From IMG/VR virus record IMGVR_UViG_3300050505_000515: a DNA stretch of 64,000 bases; one strand, given 5' to 3'. Position numbers and translations under genes: made by a program. The number at the start of each line of letters is the position of its first letter. Within the stretch, counting starts at the first letter, position 1. Positions 2,302 to 51,457 of the stretch are shown piece after piece. The notes under the pieces were generated by a model. The model made no database searches. It was not told where the DNA came from and saw only the letters and a program-made list of their open reading frames with translations. This stretch comes from a virus.

Positions 2302-2381
2302 CCCTGGCCACTCAGTGGAAGAATAAAAAGTGTGCACGAAGCGTCTGGATCTGGCCCATGGCGAGACGAGGAGAGCAAGCC

Positions 2382-2555
2382 ATGAACGAAACGACGATGG
2401 CGAAGATCGACGCGTGGCGCGCAATTCTGGCCTGGGCTCAAGCACAGAACCAGAAGTACGCCGCCCAGAACTACCAGGGGTCGGTGCAGCTCTTGCTGCG
2501 GGACCTCGTGGCGGACGTCGAGAGAAACATCCTGGAGGAGATCCGGAAGCCATGA
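2382..2555 (+). CDS. hypothetical protein (57 aa)
   Basis: SD GAGGAG; stop overlaps next ATG. Confidence 0.5.
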   Translation: MNETTMAKIDAWRAILAWAQAQNQKYAAQNYQGSVQLLLRDLVADVERNILEEIRKP

Positions 2556-3352
2556 TCACGACGCGAAGCCAGCGCTGGCGCGAGCGCAGACAGTACTTCC
2601 GTCCGGCCGGAGAGCTCATCGACCCGCGCGACTACGAGACAGCGGCGATCGAGGGTGACGGGGCCGACACGATCGCGCGCCGGTTCATCGAGACGCACCA
2701 CTACGAGCACAGCTACGTCGCTGCTCGTCGGCGCTTCGGCTTCTACCACAAGAGCGGCGAGCTCGTCGGCGTGGCCGTGTTCGCGCATCCGGCGCGCGAC
2801 TGCGTGCTCACCAACGTCTTCCCGGGCGAGGCGATCGAGAGCTTGCTCCTCGGCCGCCTCGTCCTGCTCGACAGCGTGAAGGGCAACGGCGAGACCCGGT
2901 TCCTCAGCCAGGCGTTCAAGATGCTGCGCCGGGACGGCTTCATCGGCGTCCGGTCGTTTTCGGACCCGTTCCCGCGCACCGACGAGGAGGGGCGCACCAT
3001 CTTCAAGGGCCACATCGGCGGCATCTACCAGGCGTTCTCGGCCATCTACCTCGGCCGGGCGCGCAAGGACACGATGCGCCTGCTCCCGGACGGCCAGGTC
3101 CTGCACGGCCGCGCGCTCGCCAAGATCAAGAAGCGCGACCGCGGCTACCTCGGCCACGTCGAGACGCTGGAGCGCTTCGGCGCCGCGCCGCTCCGTCCCG
3201 AGGACGACGCCGAGGCCTGGGCCGAGCACTGGGCCGCGCGCCTGACGCGCAAGCTCCGCCACCCTGGTAACCACGACTACGCCTGGGGCCTCACCGCGCA
3301 GGTGCGCCGGCACCTGCCCGAGTCCAAGCCCTACCCGAAGCTGGCGGCGTGA
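2552..3352 (+). CDS. Mom-like (phage Mu Mom, GNAT-fold) DNA modification protein
   Basis: FIETHHY, LVGVAVF..P, LGRLVLLD.V.GN.E, SFSDP, GHIGGIYQA motifs. Confidence 0.78.
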   Translation: MITTRSQRWRERRQYFRPAGELIDPRDYETAAIEGDGADTIARRFIETHHYEHSYVAARRRFGFYHKSGELVGVAVFAHPARDCVLTNVFPGEAIESLLLGRLVLLDSVKGNGETRFLSQAFKMLRRDGFIGVRSFSDPFPRTDEEGRTIFKGHIGGIYQAFSAIYLGRARKDTMRLLPDGQVLHGRALAKIKKRDRGYLGHVETLERFGAAPLRPEDDAEAWAEHWAARLTRKLRHPGNHDYAWGLTAQVRRHLPESKPYPKLAA

Positions 3353-31237: not shown

Positions 31238-31450
31238 TCACTTGCCGCTCCAGCCGTCGCGGATGGCGCGGCGGTGGACCTCGTCCCGGCTGAGCCGGAC
31301 GCCCGGCGGGACGACGAAGGTGACGCGGCAGGCGTCGACCGTGACTTCGAGGAGGAAGTCCTCCGCGATGTCGCGCCCGAAGCGCGCAGCCGCGCTCCCG
31401 TCCTCGAACGTCAGCTCGTGGCGGGTGCCCTGTCGCCAACGTTCGTTCAT
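31238..31450 (-). CDS. hypothetical protein
   Basis: coupled to upstream gene. Confidence 0.45.
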   Translation of the reverse strand: MNERWRQGTRHELTFEDGSAAARFGRDIAEDFLLEVTVDACRVTFVVPPGVRLSRDEVHRRAIRDGWSGK

Positions 31451-32226
31451 GGCAGGCCCCGGATGAAGTCGGCCATGGAGCCCGGGTGCGGGGTCGCGCC
31501 GCGGGCGCCCTTGACGGAGCGGCGCCAGAGGCCCTCGATCGTCGTCAGGTGCGGCTTCGCGCGGTCCTCCATCTCGATGATGCGCGCCGTCAGCTCCGGG
31601 TGCTTTCTGTGGAGCGTGACGAGCTCGGCGGGCTTGCTCGCCGGGCAGTAGAAGCACGCGCTCTTCTCGGGCACGGGCAGGCCCGCGCGCTGGATCTCCT
31701 CGATGCAGCGCTCGCGCGTCCAGCCCCAGTCGCGGAGCGGGTATACGTACGTATACCGGTGGTCGCTCTTGAGGTTCCAGGCGCGCCTGGAGTCCTGGGG
31801 CCCGGCGTCGTAGCCGATGGCCTTCGTGACCCGGAGCCCCGCGGCCCAGGCGGCGCGCGCCGGCTCCCAGGCCGCGCAGTAGGCGTCCTGGGGCTCGCGC
31901 TTCCACTTGGACGAGCAGGCCTTCCTCCCGAACGCGAGGGACGGCAACGTCTCGTGCTCCAGGCAGTTCTCCCCGAGCGTCGAGTAGACGTTGCCGGTCA
32001 CGCGCGAGCGGGTGGGCTTGCGCCGGACGGTGATGACCGCCGGCCAGCCGCGGTCGGCGAGCCAGCCGTCGATGACGGCTCTGTAGCCGTACGTCTCCGG
32101 CTTCTCGTCGCCGGTGTCGGCGAAGAGGATGAGGTCCGGCCGCCGGCCGCGGGCGTGGAGCCCGAGCAGCATCGCGGTCGAGTCGACCCCCTGGCCGTAG
32201 GCGACGATGAAGGGGGCGGCGGTCAT
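31447..32226 (-). CDS. PAPS-reductase/PP-loop family protein (paralog 2)
   Basis: AYGQGVDS, FADTGDEKPETY, CSSKWK, IGYDAG, YPL, PEKSACFYCP. Confidence 0.85.
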   Translation of the reverse strand: MTAAPFIVAYGQGVDSTAMLLGLHARGRRPDLILFADTGDEKPETYGYRAVIDGWLADRGWPAVITVRRKPTRSRVTGNVYSTLGENCLEHETLPSLAFGRKACSSKWKREPQDAYCAAWEPARAAWAAGLRVTKAIGYDAGPQDSRRAWNLKSDHRYTYVYPLRDWGWTRERCIEEIQRAGLPVPEKSACFYCPASKPAELVTLHRKHPELTARIIEMEDRAKPHLTTIEGLWRRSVKGARGATPHPGSMADFIRGLP

Positions 32227-33516: not shown

Positions 33517-33719
33517 GGCCCCTCCTTGTAGCGGCAGAGGATGTTTCGCACCGTGGCGGGCTCGCTGGCCGGCCGCGCGTGGTCCTGGCAGTGCTCCTCG
33601 AACCACTCGTTCAGCTCGTTCTGGAACAGGCCGCCGTCGAGCACGTCGTTCACGGCGTCGCGAGCGTCTTCGGCGGACTCTGCCTCGATGTGCAGCTCCA
33701 CCACGATCTTGACGATCAT
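33513..33719 (-). CDS. hypothetical protein
   Basis: coupled. Confidence 0.5.
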   Translation of the reverse strand: MIVKIVVELHIEAESAEDARDAVNDVLDGGLFQNELNEWFEEHCQDHARPASEPATVRNILCRYKEGP

Positions 33720-34882
33720 GCGGCCGCCTTTCCGATGGCGACGACGCTGGATGCGTCGGTCATCTGTGCGGCGCCGAGCTCCACGTACGCGGTCGCGCGG
33801 TCGCGGAGCGGAGCGCCCGGGTAGACCGAGCACTCGATGGCCACGGTCCAGAGGCGAGCGCCGAGGGCGCCCAGCTCGTCGAGGGCCGCGTTCTGGGCGT
33901 GGTGATTCCCGTCCTCGCCGTCGGTCACGAGCACGACGTCGGCGCCGACTTGGCCCTTCTTCGTCAGCTCGCGCACCTGCTCGGCCGCGTTGGAGAGCGC
34001 CATGCCGATGGCGGTCCCGCCGCCCATGAAGTGACGGATCATCTCGACCACGGCGCCGGCGTCGCCGGGCTTGATCGGTCGGACGACCACGGACGTCGAG
34101 TAGTGGATGACCACGACATCGCGCTTCTCCTCGAAGGCGATGCGCATGAGCGCGATGGCGGCGGCGCGAGCCCACTCGTTCCGGTAGCCGCGCATGCTGC
34201 TGGATTCGTCCAGCGCCATCACGAGCGGGCCCTTGCTGACGTGGGAGGAGCCACGGACCGCGTACTGGAGCGCGCGGGACTCGATGATCCGGACGAGCAC
34301 GGGCAGCTCCAGCTCCGGATCCATCAGCTGCGCGTGCTCGGTCGGGAGCAGGCGCGGGATGTTGTTCCCCATCTCGACGGAGTGGACCTCCTCGGGGATG
34401 CCGTGGACGCGGCCGGCGCGGGCGCCGGAGAGCGCCGCGTGCATCCGGCCGGCGAGGCGCGCTACGCGCTCCACGTCGGCCGTATTGCCGCCGCCGACGG
34501 CGACGTCCTGGAGCGTCACCCAGGCACTGTCGAGGCTCCAGCCGAAGCCGGAGGCGAGCTCCACGGTCGCGGTCGCGCGGTCGTGAAAGAGCGCCCAGGC
34601 TTCCCTGGCATGGTCGCGGAGCGCCACGCCCGTCAGGCGGGCGGTGCCGCGGAGCGCCGCGTCCCAGTGCATCGAGAACGCGTACGCGCACGCCACGTCG
34701 GAGCCCGCGAGCAGGCTCGCGTACTCGGTCGGCGCGGTGTCACGCACGGCCTCGGCGTAGCTGCCCACCGTGGGCTCGCCGTCGTCGCAGACGGCGGCCC
34801 AGAGGGCAGCCGCGAGCGCGAGATCGCGCTTTGCTGCTTCGCCGACGACGCGGTGTCGCCGGCGTGCTTCCTGGAATCGCAT
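33716..34882 (-). CDS. VWA-domain protein (ViaA/YehP-like)
   Basis: MIDAS LDESSSM, GGGT, VVLVTDG; adjacent to a MoxR ATPase. Confidence 0.85.
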   Translation of the reverse strand: MRFQEARRRHRVVGEAAKRDLALAAALWAAVCDDGEPTVGSYAEAVRDTAPTEYASLLAGSDVACAYAFSMHWDAALRGTARLTGVALRDHAREAWALFHDRATATVELASGFGWSLDSAWVTLQDVAVGGGNTADVERVARLAGRMHAALSGARAGRVHGIPEEVHSVEMGNNIPRLLPTEHAQLMDPELELPVLVRIIESRALQYAVRGSSHVSKGPLVMALDESSSMRGYRNEWARAAAIALMRIAFEEKRDVVVIHYSTSVVVRPIKPGDAGAVVEMIRHFMGGGTAIGMALSNAAEQVRELTKKGQVGADVVLVTDGEDGNHHAQNAALDELGALGARLWTVAIECSVYPGAPLRDRATAYVELGAAQMTDASSVVAIGKAAA

Positions 34883-34901
34883 GCTGTCCTCCTTTCTTTG
34901 G

Positions 34902-36083
34902 TTAGGGCATCCCGCTGTAGCGCTGGCTCACGAGGTCTTCCTTGAGCTGCTGATTCGCCGCCTTGAGGGCTGCGACCTTGCGCTCCACCTTCTCGTGCGC
35001 GCGGCGCGTGAGCTTGCCGGCGTACTGCTGGACCCGCTTGCCGGCGGTCGCCAGCGTGGTCATCAGCGTCGGGATCGCGGCGTAGTACGCCGCGGGATCG
35101 GTCGGCCTGGCCTCGTAGGCCCGGAGCGCGTCGTCGATGATGTCGAGCGCTTCGCGCGCGGGACCGAGGTCCACGGTCTTGAGCGTGGCCTCGACCGGGC
35201 CGATCTCCGCCTGTTTCGACCAGAGGCCGAAGCGGAGCGCGTAGAGGTGGTCCTTCTCGACCTCGGGCGCGCCATCGAGCCAGGCCGCAGCCTGGAGCAC
35301 GCCGCAGAGCTGGATCCAGCGCCGGTCAGACACGACCACGCCGTCGCGGGTGAGCAGCGCCTTGAGGCGCTCCAGCTCGTCGTAGATGGCGTCCGGGATG
35401 ACCACGGCGGTGACCGCGCGGGTCACGGCGTCCCACTCGGCGACGGTGATCGTCGCCGGGGGCGTGAAGCTCGGGCGAGCCTTGAGCATGCCCTTCCAGG
35501 CGTGCGGGGACTCGACGTACGAGACCACGTAGCGGAGCAGGAACCGGTCGAAGAGGGCGCCGAGGGTTTCGTCCTCGGGCATCTCGTTCGAGGCGCCGCA
35601 CGCCATGCGGAGCGGGGAAGGCTTGCCCTTGTAGGTCCGCTCGTTCAGGACCGAGAGCGTCGAGTTGAGCACGGCGCTGTTGGCCTTGAACGTCTCGTCC
35701 AGGAAGGCCACCTCGCAGCCGGGCAGGTGCCCGTCCGTCGAGCGCTCGAATCGGTCCTGTTTCAGGGCCGAGAGCTTGGCCGGGCCGCACACCTCGTCCT
35801 CGGTCGAGAACTTGGTGAGCAGCGTGGAGAAGTACCGGGCGCCCGAGATGCAGCGGGTCAGCGCACCGATGAGGTGCGACTTGCCGGTGCCGGGCGGCCC
35901 GAGCAGCAGCGGGTGCTGCTGGCAGAGCGCCGAGAGCATGATGCACTCGACGGCGTCGTCGCGCTCGACGTACGTCCGGAGCATCGCGTCGCGGATCGCG
36001 GCGAAACGCCTCCGGAGGTCGCCGAGATCCACCGCGGGCGCGGCGGTCGCGAGACCGTTCTGAGCGGGTGAGATGTCGTCCAC
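34902..36083 (-). CDS. RavA/MoxR-family AAA+ ATPase
   Basis: LLGPPGTGKS, LLTKFSTEDEVCGP, FLDETFKANSAVLNSTL; SD GAAGGAG. Confidence 0.9.
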   Translation of the reverse strand: MDDISPAQNGLATAAPAVDLGDLRRRFAAIRDAMLRTYVERDDAVECIMLSALCQQHPLLLGPPGTGKSHLIGALTRCISGARYFSTLLTKFSTEDEVCGPAKLSALKQDRFERSTDGHLPGCEVAFLDETFKANSAVLNSTLSVLNERTYKGKPSPLRMACGASNEMPEDETLGALFDRFLLRYVVSYVESPHAWKGMLKARPSFTPPATITVAEWDAVTRAVTAVVIPDAIYDELERLKALLTRDGVVVSDRRWIQLCGVLQAAAWLDGAPEVEKDHLYALRFGLWSKQAEIGPVEATLKTVDLGPAREALDIIDDALRAYEARPTDPAAYYAAIPTLMTTLATAGKRVQQYAGKLTRRAHEKVERKVAALKAANQQLKEDLVSQRYSGMP

Positions 36084-36115
36084 GGGTTGGCTCCTTCGTG
36101 GTGCATGCCGGAATT

Positions 36116-36219
36116 GGCATGGCGCTGCGGCGGTAGGCACCCAGAGCCCAGACCGGGATGGGCGGGCCTAGGACCCGGACGGCGCACGGCCGCCTGACAT
36201 ACCGTCGCAGCGCCATGCC
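36116..36219. other. 20-bp inverted repeat in structured intergenic region
   Basis: GGCATGGCGCTGCGGCGGTA / TACCGTCGCAGCGCCATGCC, one mismatch. Confidence 0.7.
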
Positions 36220-44113: not shown

Positions 44114-44637
44114 CCACACTCGACGAGGGCCTGGCCATCATCGCCAAGATGAAGGCCGAGGCCCGCAAGCTCCCCGAGGGGTTCTACCGCCTCAAGTGCG
44201 ACGTCACGAACCCGCAGCCCGACCGGCGGCAGAAGCACGACTGGCGTGCTCTCGTGAGCTGGCAGAAGGGCGCGCGCTTTCGCATCGTCGACCCCTGCGG
44301 CGACGGGCGGGAGCTCCAGCGCGGCAAGTGGAGCCACCACCGGATCTGCATCGACGCCAACGGCAACACGTACGGCGAGGTGCTCGACCGCATCCTCCCC
44401 TGTCTCCGCCCGGAGACGGCCCAGGACAACCCCGACACCGAGCTGGAGTGGGCCATCCTGAAGCGTGGCCACAGCCTCGACGGCTGCGGCGCAGACTTGC
44501 TCTGCTACCTCATCCGCCGTGGCAAGGTCACGGTGGCGGACGCCCTCGCCGCGCTCGATGAATTCGAGCGCGACTTGGCGGCGGACGACGACGCGGTGCG
44601 AGCCAATGTCCCGCCCGAGGAGGACACGGCGCCATGA
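44110..44637 (+). CDS. hypothetical protein
   Basis: SD AAGGAGG; coupled. Confidence 0.55.
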   Translation: MTTLDEGLAIIAKMKAEARKLPEGFYRLKCDVTNPQPDRRQKHDWRALVSWQKGARFRIVDPCGDGRELQRGKWSHHRICIDANGNTYGEVLDRILPCLRPETAQDNPDTELEWAILKRGHSLDGCGADLLCYLIRRGKVTVADALAALDEFERDLAADDDAVRANVPPEEDTAP

Positions 44638-45422
44638 CCCCCGACCTCCAGAGCTACGACGTCCTGCTCGTCAACTCCAGCGCCGGCAAGGACAGCCAGG
44701 CCATGCTCGACCAGGTTGTCGCGCTGGCCGGCGCCGCCGGGATCCATGACCGCGTGGTCGTGGTCCACGCCGACCTCGGCCGGGTGGAGTGGCAAGGGAC
44801 GCGCGCGCTCGCGGAGGAGCAGGCCGCCCACTACGGCGTCCGGTTCGAGGTGGTCAAGCGCACCCAGAACGATCTGCTCGGCCACGTGAGGGCGCGGGGG
44901 CGCTGGCCCGGGATGGGCCCGACCCGCTTCTGCACGAGCGACCACAAGCGCGGCCCGGTGCGCACGCTGATGACCCGGCTCGTCCGGGAGCTCCACCGCG
45001 GCCGGCCGGTCCGGATCCTCAACTGCATGGGGATGCGCGCGGCCGAGAGCCCGGCGCGGGCCAAGATGACTGCCTTCGCGTACGACGCGGCGTCCTCCAA
45101 CGGACGGCGCCACGTCGACAAGTGGCTGCCGATTCACGACTGGTCGAAGGACCAGGTCTGGGCGCGCATCCGGGAGAGCAAGGTCCGGCACCACCGGGCC
45201 TACGATCTCGGGATGCCGCGCCTCAGCTGCGTGTTCTGCATCTACGCGCCGCGCGACGCGCTGCTCCTCGCCGGGGAGCACAACCCGGAGCTGCTCGCCG
45301 AGTACGTCTCGGTCGAGCGGCTCATCCGGCACAAGTTCAAGGCGGATCTCGCCATCGAGGAGATCCAGGACGCGCTCGCACGGGGCGAGCGCGCCGCCAA
45401 ACCGGCCGACTGGGCCATGTAG
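44634..45422 (+). CDS. PAPS-reductase/PP-loop family protein (paralog 3)
   Basis: NSSAGKDS, HADLG, RFCTSDHKRGP, GMRAAES..R, WLPIHDW, RLSCVFC. Confidence 0.85.
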   Translation: MTPDLQSYDVLLVNSSAGKDSQAMLDQVVALAGAAGIHDRVVVVHADLGRVEWQGTRALAEEQAAHYGVRFEVVKRTQNDLLGHVRARGRWPGMGPTRFCTSDHKRGPVRTLMTRLVRELHRGRPVRILNCMGMRAAESPARAKMTAFAYDAASSNGRRHVDKWLPIHDWSKDQVWARIRESKVRHHRAYDLGMPRLSCVFCIYAPRDALLLAGEHNPELLAEYVSVERLIRHKFKADLAIEEIQDALARGERAAKPADWAM

Positions 45423-45620: not shown

Positions 45621-45967
45621 GCTGGGCGGACGCGAAGTTCGCGAAGCCCGCGCGCTCGATGGCAGATATTGTCGCCCACGCCGTGGCGGCGTTCTGGGCC
45701 GACGTCGCCGCGCAGCACCCGGAGATCACGACTGGCGACCTCGGGGCCATGGAGACCGCGGCGTTCGAGGACGCTGCGAGCATCGCCGTGCTGGAGTGGC
45801 TCCGAGCGAACGAGCCCCACCCGAGCGACGTCGAGCACTTCGTCGGCAAGACGGTCGTACGCGTGGACCACAATGCGCTCGTGGGCTCGCACGGCGAGCC
45901 GACCGTCACCCTGCATTTCGGCGACCGGACGACGCACACCTACGTCCTGTCGCCCCACGACGACTGA
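45617..45967 (+). CDS. hypothetical protein
   Basis: GTGA coupling. Confidence 0.5.
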   Translation: MSWADAKFAKPARSMADIVAHAVAAFWADVAAQHPEITTGDLGAMETAAFEDAASIAVLEWLRANEPHPSDVEHFVGKTVVRVDHNALVGSHGEPTVTLHFGDRTTHTYVLSPHDD

Positions 45968-45990
45968 CCCCAACCCAACGAAAGGACCCC

Positions 45991-46797
45991 ATGGCACGCA
46001 AGACATCGCCGCGGCGAGCTCCCGATCACGTGCTCGCCAAGCTGGAGCGCCTGCGCGTCTCCGGCAACGTCGCGCTCCGCTACGAGGAGCAGCTCGACCG
46101 CGAGGAGTACCTCGCCATGAACCTCGTGCTCGAAGCCCTGGGCGGCAAGTGGAACCGGAAAGCCAACGGGCACATCTTCCCGGGCGACCCGACGCCGCTG
46201 CTCACCCAGGTGCTGGAGACCGGCATCTACACCGACGGCAAGAAGGACTTCGGGTTCTTCGAGACGCCCGAGCACCTCGCCGAGGCGATGGTCGAGCGGG
46301 CCGGCGTGAAGCTCCACCACCAGGTGCTGGAGCCGTCCGCCGGCCGCGGGCGCATCGCCCTGCAGGCGCGCCTGTCGGGCGCGTTCGTGCACTGCGTCGA
46401 GATCCAGCCCGAGCACGCGAAGTACCTGCGCGAAACGCTCGGGTTCACGAACGTGCACGAGGCCGACTTCCTGACCCTCTGGTCAGACTCCGGCCACAAG
46501 CACTTCGGTCCGTACGTCGCCCAGAACGGCGGCTTCGACCGCATCGTCATGAACCCGCCGTTCGCGGGCCAGGTCGACATCGACCACGTGCTGCACGCCT
46601 ACGGGATGCTCCGTCCGGGCGGCACGCTGGTCAGTGTGATGGCGGCCGGCGTCGCCTTCCGCGAGAACGCGAAGACCCGGGGCTTCCGCGAATTTGTGAG
46701 CGAATGCCGCGGCGGCAGCATCGAGCCTCTGCCGGACGGCACGTTCGAGGAGAGCGGCACCGGCGTGCGCACCGTGCTCGTCACGCTGCATCGCTGA
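45991..46797 (+). CDS. class I SAM-dependent amino (probably N6-adenine) methyltransferase
   Basis: FFETP, VLEPSAGRG, EADFL, VMNPPF. Confidence 0.85.
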   Translation: MARKTSPRRAPDHVLAKLERLRVSGNVALRYEEQLDREEYLAMNLVLEALGGKWNRKANGHIFPGDPTPLLTQVLETGIYTDGKKDFGFFETPEHLAEAMVERAGVKLHHQVLEPSAGRGRIALQARLSGAFVHCVEIQPEHAKYLRETLGFTNVHEADFLTLWSDSGHKHFGPYVAQNGGFDRIVMNPPFAGQVDIDHVLHAYGMLRPGGTLVSVMAAGVAFRENAKTRGFREFVSECRGGSIEPLPDGTFEESGTGVRTVLVTLHR

Positions 46798-47683: not shown

Positions 47684-47922
47684 CCAAGGACAAGAGACGA
47701 TTCCGGCTCCAGGACGCCCGCGGGGAAGACTGCCTCGGCGGCGCCGTTACCATCGACAACCCCTACATCAGCGGCTACGGCACGCTCGTCGGCGGCTCCC
47801 CGCCCGACAAGCTCCGCGTCCGCGACTCCTGCAAGAAGCGCTACGCGCTCTCGGGCCAGAAGCCGACGGTCTACACCATCGTGCGCGTCGAGGACGCGGA
47901 GGAGGAGCCGTGCGCCTCCTAG
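47680..47922 (+). CDS. hypothetical protein
   Basis: SD AAGGA; coupled. Confidence 0.55.
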   Translation: MTKDKRRFRLQDARGEDCLGGAVTIDNPYISGYGTLVGGSPPDKLRVRDSCKKRYALSGQKPTVYTIVRVEDAEEEPCAS

Positions 47923-48593
47923 CCCTGGGCCTGCTCACGCTCGCCGGCTGCGGCGGCGGTGACTTCGTGGCCGGTGAGACGGACCCGGACGCCGCGGGCG
48001 TGACCGACACCTCGTCGAGCTCTGCCAGCTCTGGCCCCGGCGGCGAGGCGGGCGGGAGCTCGGTCTCTTCGTCGACCGGCCAGGGCGCCGGCGGCAGCGG
48101 AGCCGGTCCGGCTTCGTCGTCGTCCTCGACCACTGGGCCTGGCGGAGGCGGAGCCGGTGGCGGCTGCGTCGCCAAGACTTGCGAGGACCTCGGCAAGGAC
48201 TGCGGTCCCGAGGACGACGGCTGCGGCGGCCCGCTCGACTGCGGCTCTTGCCCCGTGAACGAAACATGCGGCGGCGGCGGTACTCCCGGCGTCTGCGGCG
48301 GGTGCGTGCCCACGTCCTGCGCGGCCGAGGACGTGCACTGCGGCACGGTCGCGGACGGCTGCGGCAACACCCTCGACTGCGGCGCCTACCAGGCGTCGCC
48401 CGGCAACGACTTCGGCCAGAACTCCACCGCCGCGTGCCCCGATGCCACGTGGCCGCTCGCGTGGAAGTGCGCCGCCGGCGGCAAGAAGGGCGCGAGCCCG
48501 CCGCCGCCAGGGGCCACGTCCTGCATCGACAACCCCGTCGTGGCCGGCTGGACCGACTACGGCGACTACTACTGGTGCTGCGATTTCCCATGA
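47910..48593 (+). CDS. myxobacterial-type Cys-rich lipoprotein
   Basis: lipobox LAGC; Ser/Gly linker; C..TC...CG...DGCG..LDCG repeats. Confidence 0.75.
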   Translation: MRLLALGLLTLAGCGGGDFVAGETDPDAAGVTDTSSSSASSGPGGEAGGSSVSSSTGQGAGGSGAGPASSSSSTTGPGGGGAGGGCVAKTCEDLGKDCGPEDDGCGGPLDCGSCPVNETCGGGGTPGVCGGCVPTSCAAEDVHCGTVADGCGNTLDCGAYQASPGNDFGQNSTAACPDATWPLAWKCAAGGKKGASPPPPGATSCIDNPVVAGWTDYGDYYWCCDFP

Positions 48594-48989: not shown

Positions 48990-49154
48990 ATGACGGACCG
49001 ACAGCTGCCCAAGTGCGCCCGCGGCGAGCCGTGCGAGCGCGACCGCGTGCACGCGCCCGAGCGCGTCACCTGGGATGATCTGCAACGCCTGACGCTCTGC
49101 GCGGAGCACCGCGAGGAGCTCACCAAGGCCTCGAAGAGGACGGCGAGCAAGTGA
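48990..49154 (+). CDS. small Cys/His protein
   Basis: SD GAAGGAG. Confidence 0.45.
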   Translation: MTDRQLPKCARGEPCERDRVHAPERVTWDDLQRLTLCAEHREELTKASKRTASK

Positions 49155-49441
49155 AGCCGCGCCACGAACACGACTGCGAGAGGTGCACCTTCCTCGGCTG
49201 CTACGGCGACGCCGACCTCTACCACTGCGCGAAGGGCGTCGGCCCGACGGTGATCGCGCGCTACGGCGCCGAGGCGGACTACGCGTCCGCGCCGGTGTGG
49301 ATGCGCGAAACTCGTCCAGAGCCACAGCCGCTGCCGGGCCAGCCTGGCTGGCCTGAGCTGGAGCAGATGGCGGCGCTCCGGGTCGCCTACCTCCTCGCCA
49401 TCGACGCCGGCCTGCCGGTCGAGCCGGTCGAGAAGCCATGA
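49151..49441 (+). CDS. hypothetical protein
   Basis: HEHDCERC.FLG; coupled. Confidence 0.55.
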   Translation: MKPRHEHDCERCTFLGCYGDADLYHCAKGVGPTVIARYGAEADYASAPVWMRETRPEPQPLPGQPGWPELEQMAALRVAYLLAIDAGLPVEPVEKP

Positions 49442-49713
49442 GCCGGTCCTACTTCCTCGCGTCGCGCACGCTGCCCGACGGTCGTGAGCTCGGCATCGTG
49501 CCGCTCACCTACGGACGGGCGCGAATCGTCTGGAGCCGGAGCGCCGGAGCGCTCACCTACGAAGACGCCTGGTGATACGACACGCCCGAGGCCGCGGTCG
49601 CGGCCTTCGATGCGTGGGACGGGGAAGGCGAGCCCTCCGGGTGGATGCGCCATCCGAGCTCGGGACGGCGCCGGCCTGGAGGAGACCCTGCGAAGGAGTA
49701 CGTGAACCGATGA
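49438..49713 (+). CDS. candidate selenoprotein (91 aa) with in-frame TGA at 49573-49575
   Basis: ATG overlaps upstream TGA; frame runs W-TGA-YDTPEAAVAAFDAWDGEGEPSGWMRHPSSGRRRPGGD to a stop overlapping next ATG; SECIS-like hairpin follows. Confidence 0.68.
49581..49616 (+). promoter_or_regulatory. bacterial SECIS-like stem-loop
   Basis: CGAGGCCGC-GGTC-GCGGCCTTCG, loop 20 nt after TGA; lower stem CACGC/GCGTG. Confidence 0.6.
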
Positions 49714-49991
49714 AGAAGGAAGAGAGCGACGACTACTTCCGCGCCACGTTCGGCGACGTTAGGCCGGGTCGCTTGGCGAACGTCCCGCGTGCTCCCACGC
49801 TGTGGCAGCTCTTGGCCATCGCCGCCGGCGCCGTCCTGGTCGGCGTGGCCGTACGCAAGAGCCTGCGTGTCCGCGTCTCCTCGCCCGCGCCGCTCGCTGA
49901 CGCGTCGCTCGGGACGTGCGAGGATGGGTTCCGCGGTGGCGTCTACGCCGGCAGCGGGGAGGACACCCATGGACCCACATCGCAGCCCTGA
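49710..49991 (+). CDS. single-TM protein
   Basis: LWQLLAIAAGAVLVGVAV; ATGA coupling. Confidence 0.5.
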   Translation: MKKEESDDYFRATFGDVRPGRLANVPRAPTLWQLLAIAAGAVLVGVAVRKSLRVRVSSPAPLADASLGTCEDGFRGGVYAGSGEDTHGPTSQP

Positions 49992-50426: not shown

Positions 50427-51101
50427 ATGACCACCGTCACGCGCTTCGAGAAGGCGCTCGGCGAGCGTGCCCAGGCCTGGTCCGGCCGCTGCTACGAGAT
50501 CGCCTGCGCCATCGTCAAGAAGCGCCTGGTCGACGGCGTGGCCGTCTACGGGCACTGGCTCGGCCCGGTGCACCGGCGCTCCCCGCTCTACCGGGAGCGC
50601 GCGCCGTTCTCGCGCCACGGCTGGGTCTCGCTCGAAGGCGGCAACGTGCTCGACCCGACCCGATGGGTGTTCGAGGCGGCGAGCCCGTACATCTACATCG
50701 GCCCCGTCGGCGACGTCTACGACGAGGGGGGCAACAAGTGGCGCCGAGCGGTGCAGCCGGATCCGCCGCCATACGACGACTCGGACCGACAGTACGAGAT
50801 CACCGCCCAGATCCTGCCGAGCGCGGGCTGGAACTTCGTTGAGCGCTACCTCCGGATCTGGCAGAGCGACACGCAGCCGGTCGGGTTCCTGACGGAGCCG
50901 CAGCTGCTCTACCTCGCCAACGCGCCGCTCGACGACCTCGGCGAGCACGCGGCTGCCATCTACCAGGCGCTCACCAAGCTCGGGCGCCGCGGGCTCATCC
51001 CGATCGACAACTACGACCGCGTGGAGCGCGCACGCGCGGCTCCACCGGCCCCGGCCGCCAGTCGTCGAGGGCGCGGGAAACAAGAGGGAGGCTCGGTGTG
51101 A
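50427..51101 (+). CDS. possible transglutaminase/papain-like Cys-His-Asp protein
   Basis: GRCYEIA...RHGWV...VLDPT. Confidence 0.55.
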   Translation: MTTVTRFEKALGERAQAWSGRCYEIACAIVKKRLVDGVAVYGHWLGPVHRRSPLYRERAPFSRHGWVSLEGGNVLDPTRWVFEAASPYIYIGPVGDVYDEGGNKWRRAVQPDPPPYDDSDRQYEITAQILPSAGWNFVERYLRIWQSDTQPVGFLTEPQLLYLANAPLDDLGEHAAAIYQALTKLGRRGLIPIDNYDRVERARAAPPAPAASRRGRGKQEGGSV

Positions 51102-51457
51102 TGCGCTGGCTCATGTGCTTGGTGTTGACGCTCGCTGGCTGCTCGTCCGAGGAGCGCGCCCACGCGCCCCTGCAGCACGGGATGGGCGGCTCCGGTGGCC
51201 AGGCCGCGGCGGCGAGTTCGGCGGCGACGGGCGGACAAGGCGGCGAGCCAACGGACGCCGGCTGCGATGCCTGGGCCGACGAGGGCTGCTGCGCGCCGTC
51301 GACGTTTTGCAAGGAGGGCTCGCTCGGACCGTGCCAGGTGGACGTGAAGCTCTGCGAGGGCGAGTGCGCGGGGACGCCAACGCCGGTGCCGAACACGAAG
51401 TGCGGCGACGGCGGCGTCTGCGCGGAAGGAGCCTGCGCGTACCCCGACGCGGGCTAG
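51098..51457 (+). CDS. Cys-rich lipoprotein
   Basis: lipobox LAGC; ends YPDAG. Confidence 0.65.
   Translation: MMRWLMCLVLTLAGCSSEERAHAPLQHGMGGSGGQAAAASSAATGGQGGEPTDAGCDAWADEGCCAPSTFCKEGSLGPCQVDVKLCEGECAGTPTPVPNTKCGDGGVCAEGACAYPDAG

Follow-up and report, generated by a model that had tools for sequence, protein, structure and literature searches.

A predicted selenoprotein gene with a bacterial-type SECIS hairpin in a large, mostly phage-borne protein family

Introduction

In bacteria, selenocysteine (Sec) is inserted at UGA codons with the help of a hairpin inside the coding sequence, the selenocysteine insertion sequence (SECIS), as in fdhF and fdnG of E. coli. The fdhF element has a GGUC apical loop, its minimal form begins 11 nt after the UGA, and a bulged U in its upper stem contributes to SelB binding. 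UGA can also be read through by near-cognate tRNA-Trp, as occurs at the end of the coat gene of phage Q-beta, where an extension is added. Here we examine a 64,000-nucleotide stretch of viral DNA (IMG/VR record IMGVR_UViG_3300050505_000515), which we call the window. It contains an open reading frame (ORF) at 49438-49713 with an in-frame TGA that is followed by a hairpin with a GGUC loop. From comparison with homologous loci we predict that the ORF, which belongs to a large, uncharacterised family carried mostly by phages, is a Sec-UGA/SECIS gene of the bacterial type and that its TGA is decoded as Sec, a reading to which we assign a probability of roughly 85%.

Few viral selenoproteins have been described. 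A review of recoding from 2021 records two cases only, both from poxviruses: a GPx1-like protein of molluscum contagiosum virus and a GPx4-like protein of fowlpox virus (PMC8310308). A first-pass annotation of the window, made by a model from the letters alone, had placed the known viral selenoproteins in poxviruses, not in phages. A tRNA-Sec gene was reported in Basilisk-like Bacillus phages in 2018 with no phage selenoprotein named (PMC6145125), and a 2026 review covering more than 110 prokaryotic selenoprotein families never mentions phages or viruses (PMC13188914). We found no phage selenoprotein in the full-text literature; subscription-only papers were outside the scope of this search, so priority is not guaranteed. 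Within the searchable literature, viruses of bacteria would thereby gain their first reported selenoprotein family.

Results

Features of the interrupted ORF

The elements of the candidate gene, all on the + strand, are as follows.

49438-49713 (+): recoded ORF of 91 codons plus stop, with predicted Sec (U) at residue 46, from the translation and from homologs that are full-length across the TGA
49438-49441 (+): start codon ATG (49438-49440) inside an ATGA overlap with the stop (49439-49441) of the upstream ORF 49151-49441
49573-49575 (+): in-frame TGA, the predicted Sec codon 46, flanked by near-invariant W45 and Y47 (...EDAW*YDTPE...)
49576-49586 (+): spacer of 11 nt from the TGA to the stem, from a gapless alignment of TGA-bearing homologs (A2, described below)
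49587-49595 (+): 5' arm of the hairpin, CGAGGCCGC, with the conserved core at 49589/90-49595; covariation at A2 pairs 24-39, 25-38, 26-37, 27-36, 28-35 and 29-34
49596-49599 (+): apical loop GGTC (GGUC in RNA), beginning 20 nt past the TGA
49600-49609 (+): 3' arm of the hairpin, GCGGCCTTCG, with the core at 49600-49605/06 and a single unpaired U at 49606 or 49607
49711-49713 (+): terminal stop TGA, overlapping the ATG (49710-49712) of the next ORF, 49710-49991

The first-pass annotation had described the start overlap, the internal TGA and the terminal stop overlapping the next ATG, and all of these are present in the sequence. It had also claimed an fdhF-type hairpin. The GGUC-type loop does lie 20 nt after the TGA, but the annotation had put the stem at that distance, and the stem begins at 11 nt. 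Two rhizosphere-metagenome runs, assembled separately and possibly the source of this DNA, carry the stretch with 0 differences. A short contig from another study has 4 differences and retains the TGA. Thus, the TGA base is the same in both separate assemblies and in a diverged contig of other origin.

The codon at the predicted Sec column

Because protein databases hide interrupted genes, codons were read from DNA. We fetched 80 IMG/VR viral loci and 11 genome loci, of which 88 were scorable, the window included. At the W-x-Y column, TGA is present at 53 of these 88 loci (the window and 52 others), in answer to whether other TGA-bearing homologs exist. The remainder have TGC or TGT for Cys (29), TAG (1) or Asp, Glu or Tyr codons (5). 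The loci with TGA at the column have 40-65% protein identity, and L092 and L093 are additional TGA-bearing loci. Cys codons make up 29 of the 35 loci other than TGA, and Cys is found at this column in 76 of 108 gene-called representatives, followed by Asp (9) and Glu (4). The TGA therefore sits, as the first-pass annotation had proposed from a common phage family, at a position where Cys is dominant, although not invariant.

The internal stop is specifically TGA, since the terminal stops of the same genes use TGA (32), TAG (11) and TAA (10). TGA thus accounts for 60% of the 53 terminal stops compared with 53 of 54 internal stops (Fisher p = 4.8e-7). In the block of 23 codons after the TGA, pairwise identity among 52 distinct TGA-bearers is 0.75, 0.82 and 0.39 at codon positions 1, 2 and 3, respectively. 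With this coding signature downstream of the TGA, ribosomes must pass it. A maximum-likelihood tree needs 8 switches between TGA and Cys, and well-supported branches force at least 4 of these. Sec and Cys forms occur in it as sisters, for example L045/L085, and TGA persists along long branches.

The nearest gene-called homologs show "Trp" at the column, and their contigs carry a TGA that the gene caller read as W. Read-through by tRNA-Trp, which these apparent Trp homologs had suggested, was dropped because their DNA shows TGA. Public entries with "W" at the Sec site, or that are 44-aa fragments stopping at the TGA, include P0012, P0013, P0086, P0102, P0152 and also P0094; the TGA is confirmed in DNA for P0012 and P0013, and for the other W entries it is deduced from their Ala-Ala-Val-Ala-Ala (AAVAA) context. 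One 44-aa database protein that is 91% identical to residues 3-45 is a truncated call ending at the TGA. Mistranslation and truncation of this family in public collections is a systematic annotation artefact. A 99-aa entry (P0056, N-terminus MRHPSSGRRRPGGDPAREY) is 87% identical to the C-terminal part of the window protein and continues into unrelated sequence; it is probably a call begun at an internal Met past the TGA in a close relative.

A covarying hairpin follows the TGA

The 48-nt element of the window folds with -24.2 kcal/mol (z = -2.86), and 1 of 200 shuffles was equally good. The GC content of the window is 71%. We scanned both strands of the 64 kb for a TGA that is followed at 16-37 nt by a hairpin with a GGUY loop and 6 bp or more, and that has a frame open over 30 codons or more on each side; this was the sole site. 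We aligned 52 TGA-bearers without gaps over 63 nt (A2). The core pairs, columns 24-29 with 34-39, gave a covariation score of 0.414 compared with 0.201 after shuffling, and none of 500 shuffles reached the observed score; slid partners gave at most 0.197. Pair 27-36 joins synonymous third positions and occurs as all six pair types (GC 14, AU 10, CG 9, UA 4, UG 3, GU 2). Pair 24-39, also at synonymous third positions, occurs as GC 25, CG 11, AU 4, GU 2 and UG 1. Covariation at such positions means that protein coding cannot explain the hairpin. Of 50 distinct TGA-bearers, 40 have the loop GGTC, with its two synonymous positions conserved too, and a minority of TGA-bearers has a 5-nt loop, CGUGC or CGUGU, on a register-shifted stem with equal pairing.

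By contrast, no positionally conserved hairpin was found in Cys-bearers. AAVAA is not kept in the Cys forms, and mean minimum free energy (MFE) is -9.6 kcal/mol for these compared with -13.3 kcal/mol for TGA-bearers (p = 2.7e-4).

The published bacterial SECIS (bSECIS) model has an apical loop of 3-9 nt that caps an upper stem of 4-16 bp, an MFE of -7.5 kcal/mol or lower, a G in either of the first two loop positions that is usually followed by G or U, and a distance from the UGA to the apical loop of 16-37 nt (PMC13188914); the same spacing is given elsewhere (PMC10778597). The hairpin in the window falls within all four limits, with a 4-nt GGUC loop, a perfect stem of 8 bp, a distance of 20 nt and -14.6 kcal/mol for the hairpin alone. 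In a strict perfect-stem implementation of the model, all four criteria were passed by 46 of 52 TGA-bearers and by 8 of 27 Cys forms, the latter at scattered positions and with unrelated loops. The distance is 20 nt in nearly all TGA-bearers; 39 of the 52 combine 20-nt spacing with GGUC, which none of the 27 Cys forms does (Fisher p = 1.9e-7). The SECIS proposed in the first-pass annotation is thus upheld both by covariation and by the bacterial model. Its lower stem is not. CACGC (49581-49585) and GCGTG (49612-49616) are present in the window and can pair, but among homologs this stem does not covary (0.166 compared with 0.165 shuffled; 240 of 500 shuffles), and on the alignment it is outside the conserved element.

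Sec machinery in genomes with TGA-type copies

Five GTDB genomes hold TGA-type copies of the gene; the window's own host is not among the genomes compared. Four of them (G002-G005: Gemmatimonadota, Thermomicrobiales, Caldilineaceae and a metagenome-assembled genome (MAG) of Chloroflexota) contain selB, selA and tRNA-Sec above curated cut-offs. Their selD genes (L114-L117) have one in-frame TGA each, and with a Sec-containing selD these genomes demonstrably use Sec. The fifth genome is probably a binning duplicate, having a contig identical to the Gemmatimonadota one: the same ~83-kb contig region is binned in Proteobacteria RBC095 and in Gemmatimonadetes RBC101 (L081 and L082), and only the latter genome has Sec machinery. 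All four of selA, selB, selC and selD are present in 4 of 4 distinct genomes with TGA-type relatives; the window's own host lies outside this comparison, and the binning of phage contigs into MAGs is uncertain.

Several of the Sec sites in these genomes resemble the phage hairpin, with GGUC-type loops at varying spacing. The FdnG-type formate dehydrogenase of G003 has its Sec-UGA at L110:1951 (...ARI-U-HSS...), where the TGA is followed by 11 nt, a 7-bp stem and GGUCU. At the SelD Sec sites, G003 has G-GUC-C ~33 nt past the UGA, G004 has GGUCG and G005 has CGUGA, which resembles the minority phage loop; no clear hairpin was found for SelD of G002. On these similarities, the phage element seems to be a copy of a signal to which host SelB already responds.

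No tRNA-Sec above cut-off was found in five large viral records, in which the best match is a tRNA-Ser; the phages therefore depend on the host. No tRNA genes were found in the window. On another viral contig, a tRNA with a CTA anticodon (an amber suppressor labelled tRNA-Pyl by ARAGORN; L015:4901-4977) lies 1.7 kb downstream of a TGA-type copy.

Protein family and predicted fold

The 91-residue read-through protein has 55 full-length homologs in a word-indexed protein search, and an exhaustive search raised the family to 1,151 cluster representatives; all are unnamed. The family consensus is ...DDxWCYxxxxxAxxAxxxWDGEGEPxGWxRHPxSGRRRPGGDPAKEYV, with the strongest conservation downstream of the TGA. 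The W-C-Y ... WDG.GEP.GW.RHP.SGRRRP.GD pattern that the first-pass annotation had given thus matches the real alignment. Pfam has no match for the window protein, NCBIfam no meaningful match in the 55 members and a PDB sequence search no match; the catalogued prokaryotic selenoprotein families (the Pfam/NCBIfam-indexed list of PMC13188914) gave no profile match. PHROG 24748, of unknown function, matches residues 4-84 with E = 0.0032, too weak for membership.

AlphaFold2 with the family alignment gave a confident model with pLDDT (predicted local distance difference test) of 85.3 that has four strands followed by a helix (residues 50-59). In this model, Sec46 closes strand 4 and the conserved Arg-rich tail follows. 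Among solved structures and BFVD viral models none is significantly similar (best Z 4.7), and the significant neighbours in AlphaFold DB are uncharacterised proteins only, evidently homologs. Altogether, Pfam, NCBIfam, PHROGs, PDB sequences, four fold libraries and the ESM atlas yielded no functional assignment. The window protein has no Cys elsewhere. We would guess that the Sec/Cys site acts singly, as a reactive or metal-binding residue, and not as a redox centre of the CxxC type.

Isolated relatives have Cys at the column. These are the Caulobacter jumbo phages C1, C2, J4, RB23, CcrBL9 and BL47, Sinorhizobium phage Phosso and a Skermanella plasmid. We call the family phage-encoded chiefly because it is abundant in IMG/VR viral contigs and present in isolated Caulobacter and Sinorhizobium phages. 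As to synteny, 0 of 12 neighbouring window proteins recur beside homologs, and the commonest neighbour family, which is serine-recombinase-like, occurs at 9 of 88 loci.

Gene context in the window

The neighbourhood contains phage-like accessory genes. Besides the DNA-modification proteins listed below, they encode an SLT transglycosylase, an M15/peptidoglycan-binding endolysin-like protein, a peptide deformylase and an integrase-domain protein. Neither a capsid nor a terminase gene was recognised in the window. The description of the gene as phage-encoded in the first-pass annotation is thus supported mainly by the distribution of the family. Genes for DNA modification (a Mom-family protein, two PAPS-reductase-like proteins and a DNA methyltransferase) are at 2330-3352 (+), 31447-32226 (-), 44634-45422 (+) and 45796-46797 (+), which suggests that the window is a heavily DNA-modifying mobile element. 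The co-directional gene string of the candidate includes two predicted lipoproteins (47910-48593 and 51098-51457, both +) with an LAGC lipobox, Gly/Ser-rich linkers and Cys-rich C-terminal parts; neither has a family match. At 33716-36140 (-), a MoxR-type AAA+ ATPase (bpMoxR domain) and a VWA-domain protein are adjacent, as is typical of MoxR-VWA ternary systems.

Discussion

We propose that host SelB, with GTP and Sec-tRNA(Sec), would bind the hairpin on the phage mRNA as it would the SECIS elements of host FdnG and SelD, and would compete with release factor 2 to deliver Sec at the UGA. Read-through would yield the full protein, a small four-strand-plus-helix domain in which Sec ends strand 4 and the GW.RHP.SGRRRP.GD tail follows. 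If Sec is not inserted, a 45-residue fragment lacking the conserved half would result. Production of the full-length protein would thus depend on a Sec-decoding host and on selenium.

Several observations weigh against Sec decoding or limit its support. At the column, about 30% of gene-called homologs have a residue other than Cys, such as Asp, Glu, Tyr, His, Gln or Val, and the family has no partner Cys or CxxC motif at the site, in contrast to most redox selenoproteins. The site thus matters yet can be replaced, an unusual combination for a selenoprotein that would allow a ligand role or a regulatory role of the UGA. One viral locus (L008:3112-3114; IMGVR_UViG_3300031939_000001) has TAG at the Sec column with its GGUC hairpin intact and the spacing unchanged. 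This is either a recent inactivating change or the mark of a host that decodes UAG as Sec via a tRNA-Sec with an altered anticodon, as occurs in some species (PMC10778597). The strict perfect-stem test was failed by 6 of 52 TGA-bearers, and the hairpins of L039 and L061 are weak. Rfam gave no match at gathering score in the window, and a permissive scan of 49300-49850 returned only noise. No RNA runs containing the stretch were found. Assignment of phage contigs to MAGs is uncertain, as the contig placed in two phyla (L081 = L082) illustrates. Host capacity does not separate the forms either: selA and selB are also found in 4 of the 5 genomes that carry Cys or Asp forms. The expectation that Cys forms would occur in Sec-less hosts is for this reason not discriminating and was set aside. 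Caulobacter vibrioides, whose phages carry Cys forms, does fit it, being below cut-off for selA, selB and selD in control panels.

A further locus (L095:1501-1782) has the Leu codon TTA at the column, one step from TGA and rare at this GC content, with a fully intact hairpin. It looks like a recent escape from Sec decoding.

Because relatives can have Asp, Glu or another residue at the column, Sec might be kept mainly as a gate and not for catalysis. Full-length protein would then be conditional on host SelB activity and selenium supply, and the phage would sense the physiological state of its host, with the 45-aa fragment or the 91-aa protein as output. We consider such a role for Sec rather unlikely.

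The main rival to Sec decoding is programmed read-through or termination independent of SelB, in which a near-cognate tRNA such as tRNA-Trp would rarely decode the UGA and the hairpin would act as a stimulator that sets the ratio of 45-aa to 91-aa product. Hairpins past stop codons can stimulate read-through, a truncated and a full product are both conceivable, and many residues are tolerated at the column in other homologs. Yet the codon alternates specifically with Cys (29 of the 35 loci without TGA) and is tied to a SECIS-like hairpin, whose GGUC is conserved at synonymous sites and matched by host SECIS loops, in FdnG at the same 11-nt spacing. The homologs with seeming Trp carry a TGA that was miscalled as W, and all four independent genomes that host TGA copies decode Sec. 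Moreover, the base directly 3' of the UGA is U in every case, and UGA-U is not known to be a leaky context in E. coli. On balance we regard SelB-independent read-through as improbable.

It is far less probable still that the hairpin is a by-product of GC-rich coding for Ala-Ala-Val-Ala-Ala and that the TGA arose by sequencing error or by a mutation that inactivated a decaying gene. GCN GCG GTC GCN GCN is partly self-complementary by construction, and DNA of high GC content folds readily. Against this, the TGA is retained in 53 divergent loci with a coding signature downstream, the tree excludes that these are mostly one clonal sequence, and the TGA base is the same across assemblies. The covariation sits at synonymous third positions that are free of protein-coding constraint, and the Cys forms keep neither AAVAA nor the hairpin. 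Finally, genome-wide reassignment of TGA to Trp or Gly (code 4 or 25) in the phages or their hosts, which the TGA=W translations of some gene callers might suggest, can practically be dismissed, as the same genes and their neighbours end at TGA (32 of 53 terminal stops), each gene has one internal TGA, always at the same column and linked to the hairpin, and the hosts are ordinary high-GC soil lineages.

If Sec is decoded as predicted, bacterial viruses routinely use host Sec recoding, since a Sec-UGA with a covarying SECIS is present at well over half of the loci sampled, and gene callers systematically truncate or mistranslate the genes of this family. It would also mean that Sec can occupy a small fold that has no CxxC and no significant similarity to characterised proteins. 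The UGA and its 17-nt hairpin form a compact natural cassette for studies of SelB specificity across phyla, and function could be approached experimentally through the Cys-form relatives in isolated phages of Caulobacter and Sinorhizobium.

Among the known systems that involve phages, the Basilisk-like phages also link a phage with the Sec system, but they do so via a tRNA gene (PMC6145125), whereas the phage records searched here are without tRNA-Sec. Like the A1 protein of phage Q-beta, the family uses a phage UGA that is read through for a longer product; here, however, the UGA lies mid-domain, alternates with Cys codons across the family and is linked to a SECIS-like hairpin. The poxvirus selenoproteins are likewise encoded by a virus and wholly dependent on the host for Sec, and the fowlpox SECIS is also inside the coding region (PMC8310308). 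The poxvirus cases are captured eukaryotic glutathione peroxidases with a eukaryotic-type SECIS, whereas the phage family has a bacterial-type SECIS and no known cellular function.

The closest likeness is to the bacterial genes with a Sec-UGA and an intragenic SECIS, namely E. coli fdhF and fdnG and the host genes for FdnG and SelD. Although the phage family is unrelated by Pfam and NCBIfam to catalogued bacterial selenoproteins and is carried by phages and mobile elements, its UGA aligns with the Cys of homologs, its hairpin is internal to the ORF with a loop 16-37 nt from the UGA, and a G occupies the first loop positions. The phage hairpin differs from the bacterial examples in having a 4-nt loop on a perfect stem of 6-9 bp. 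It shares the layout of fdhF (11 nt and GGUC) but not the bulged U as a conserved feature; the window does have an unpaired U on the 3' side, where pairs past the core of 6-7 bp are not conserved across homologs. With host FdnG, the phage gene has in common both the 11-nt spacer and the GGUC-type loop.
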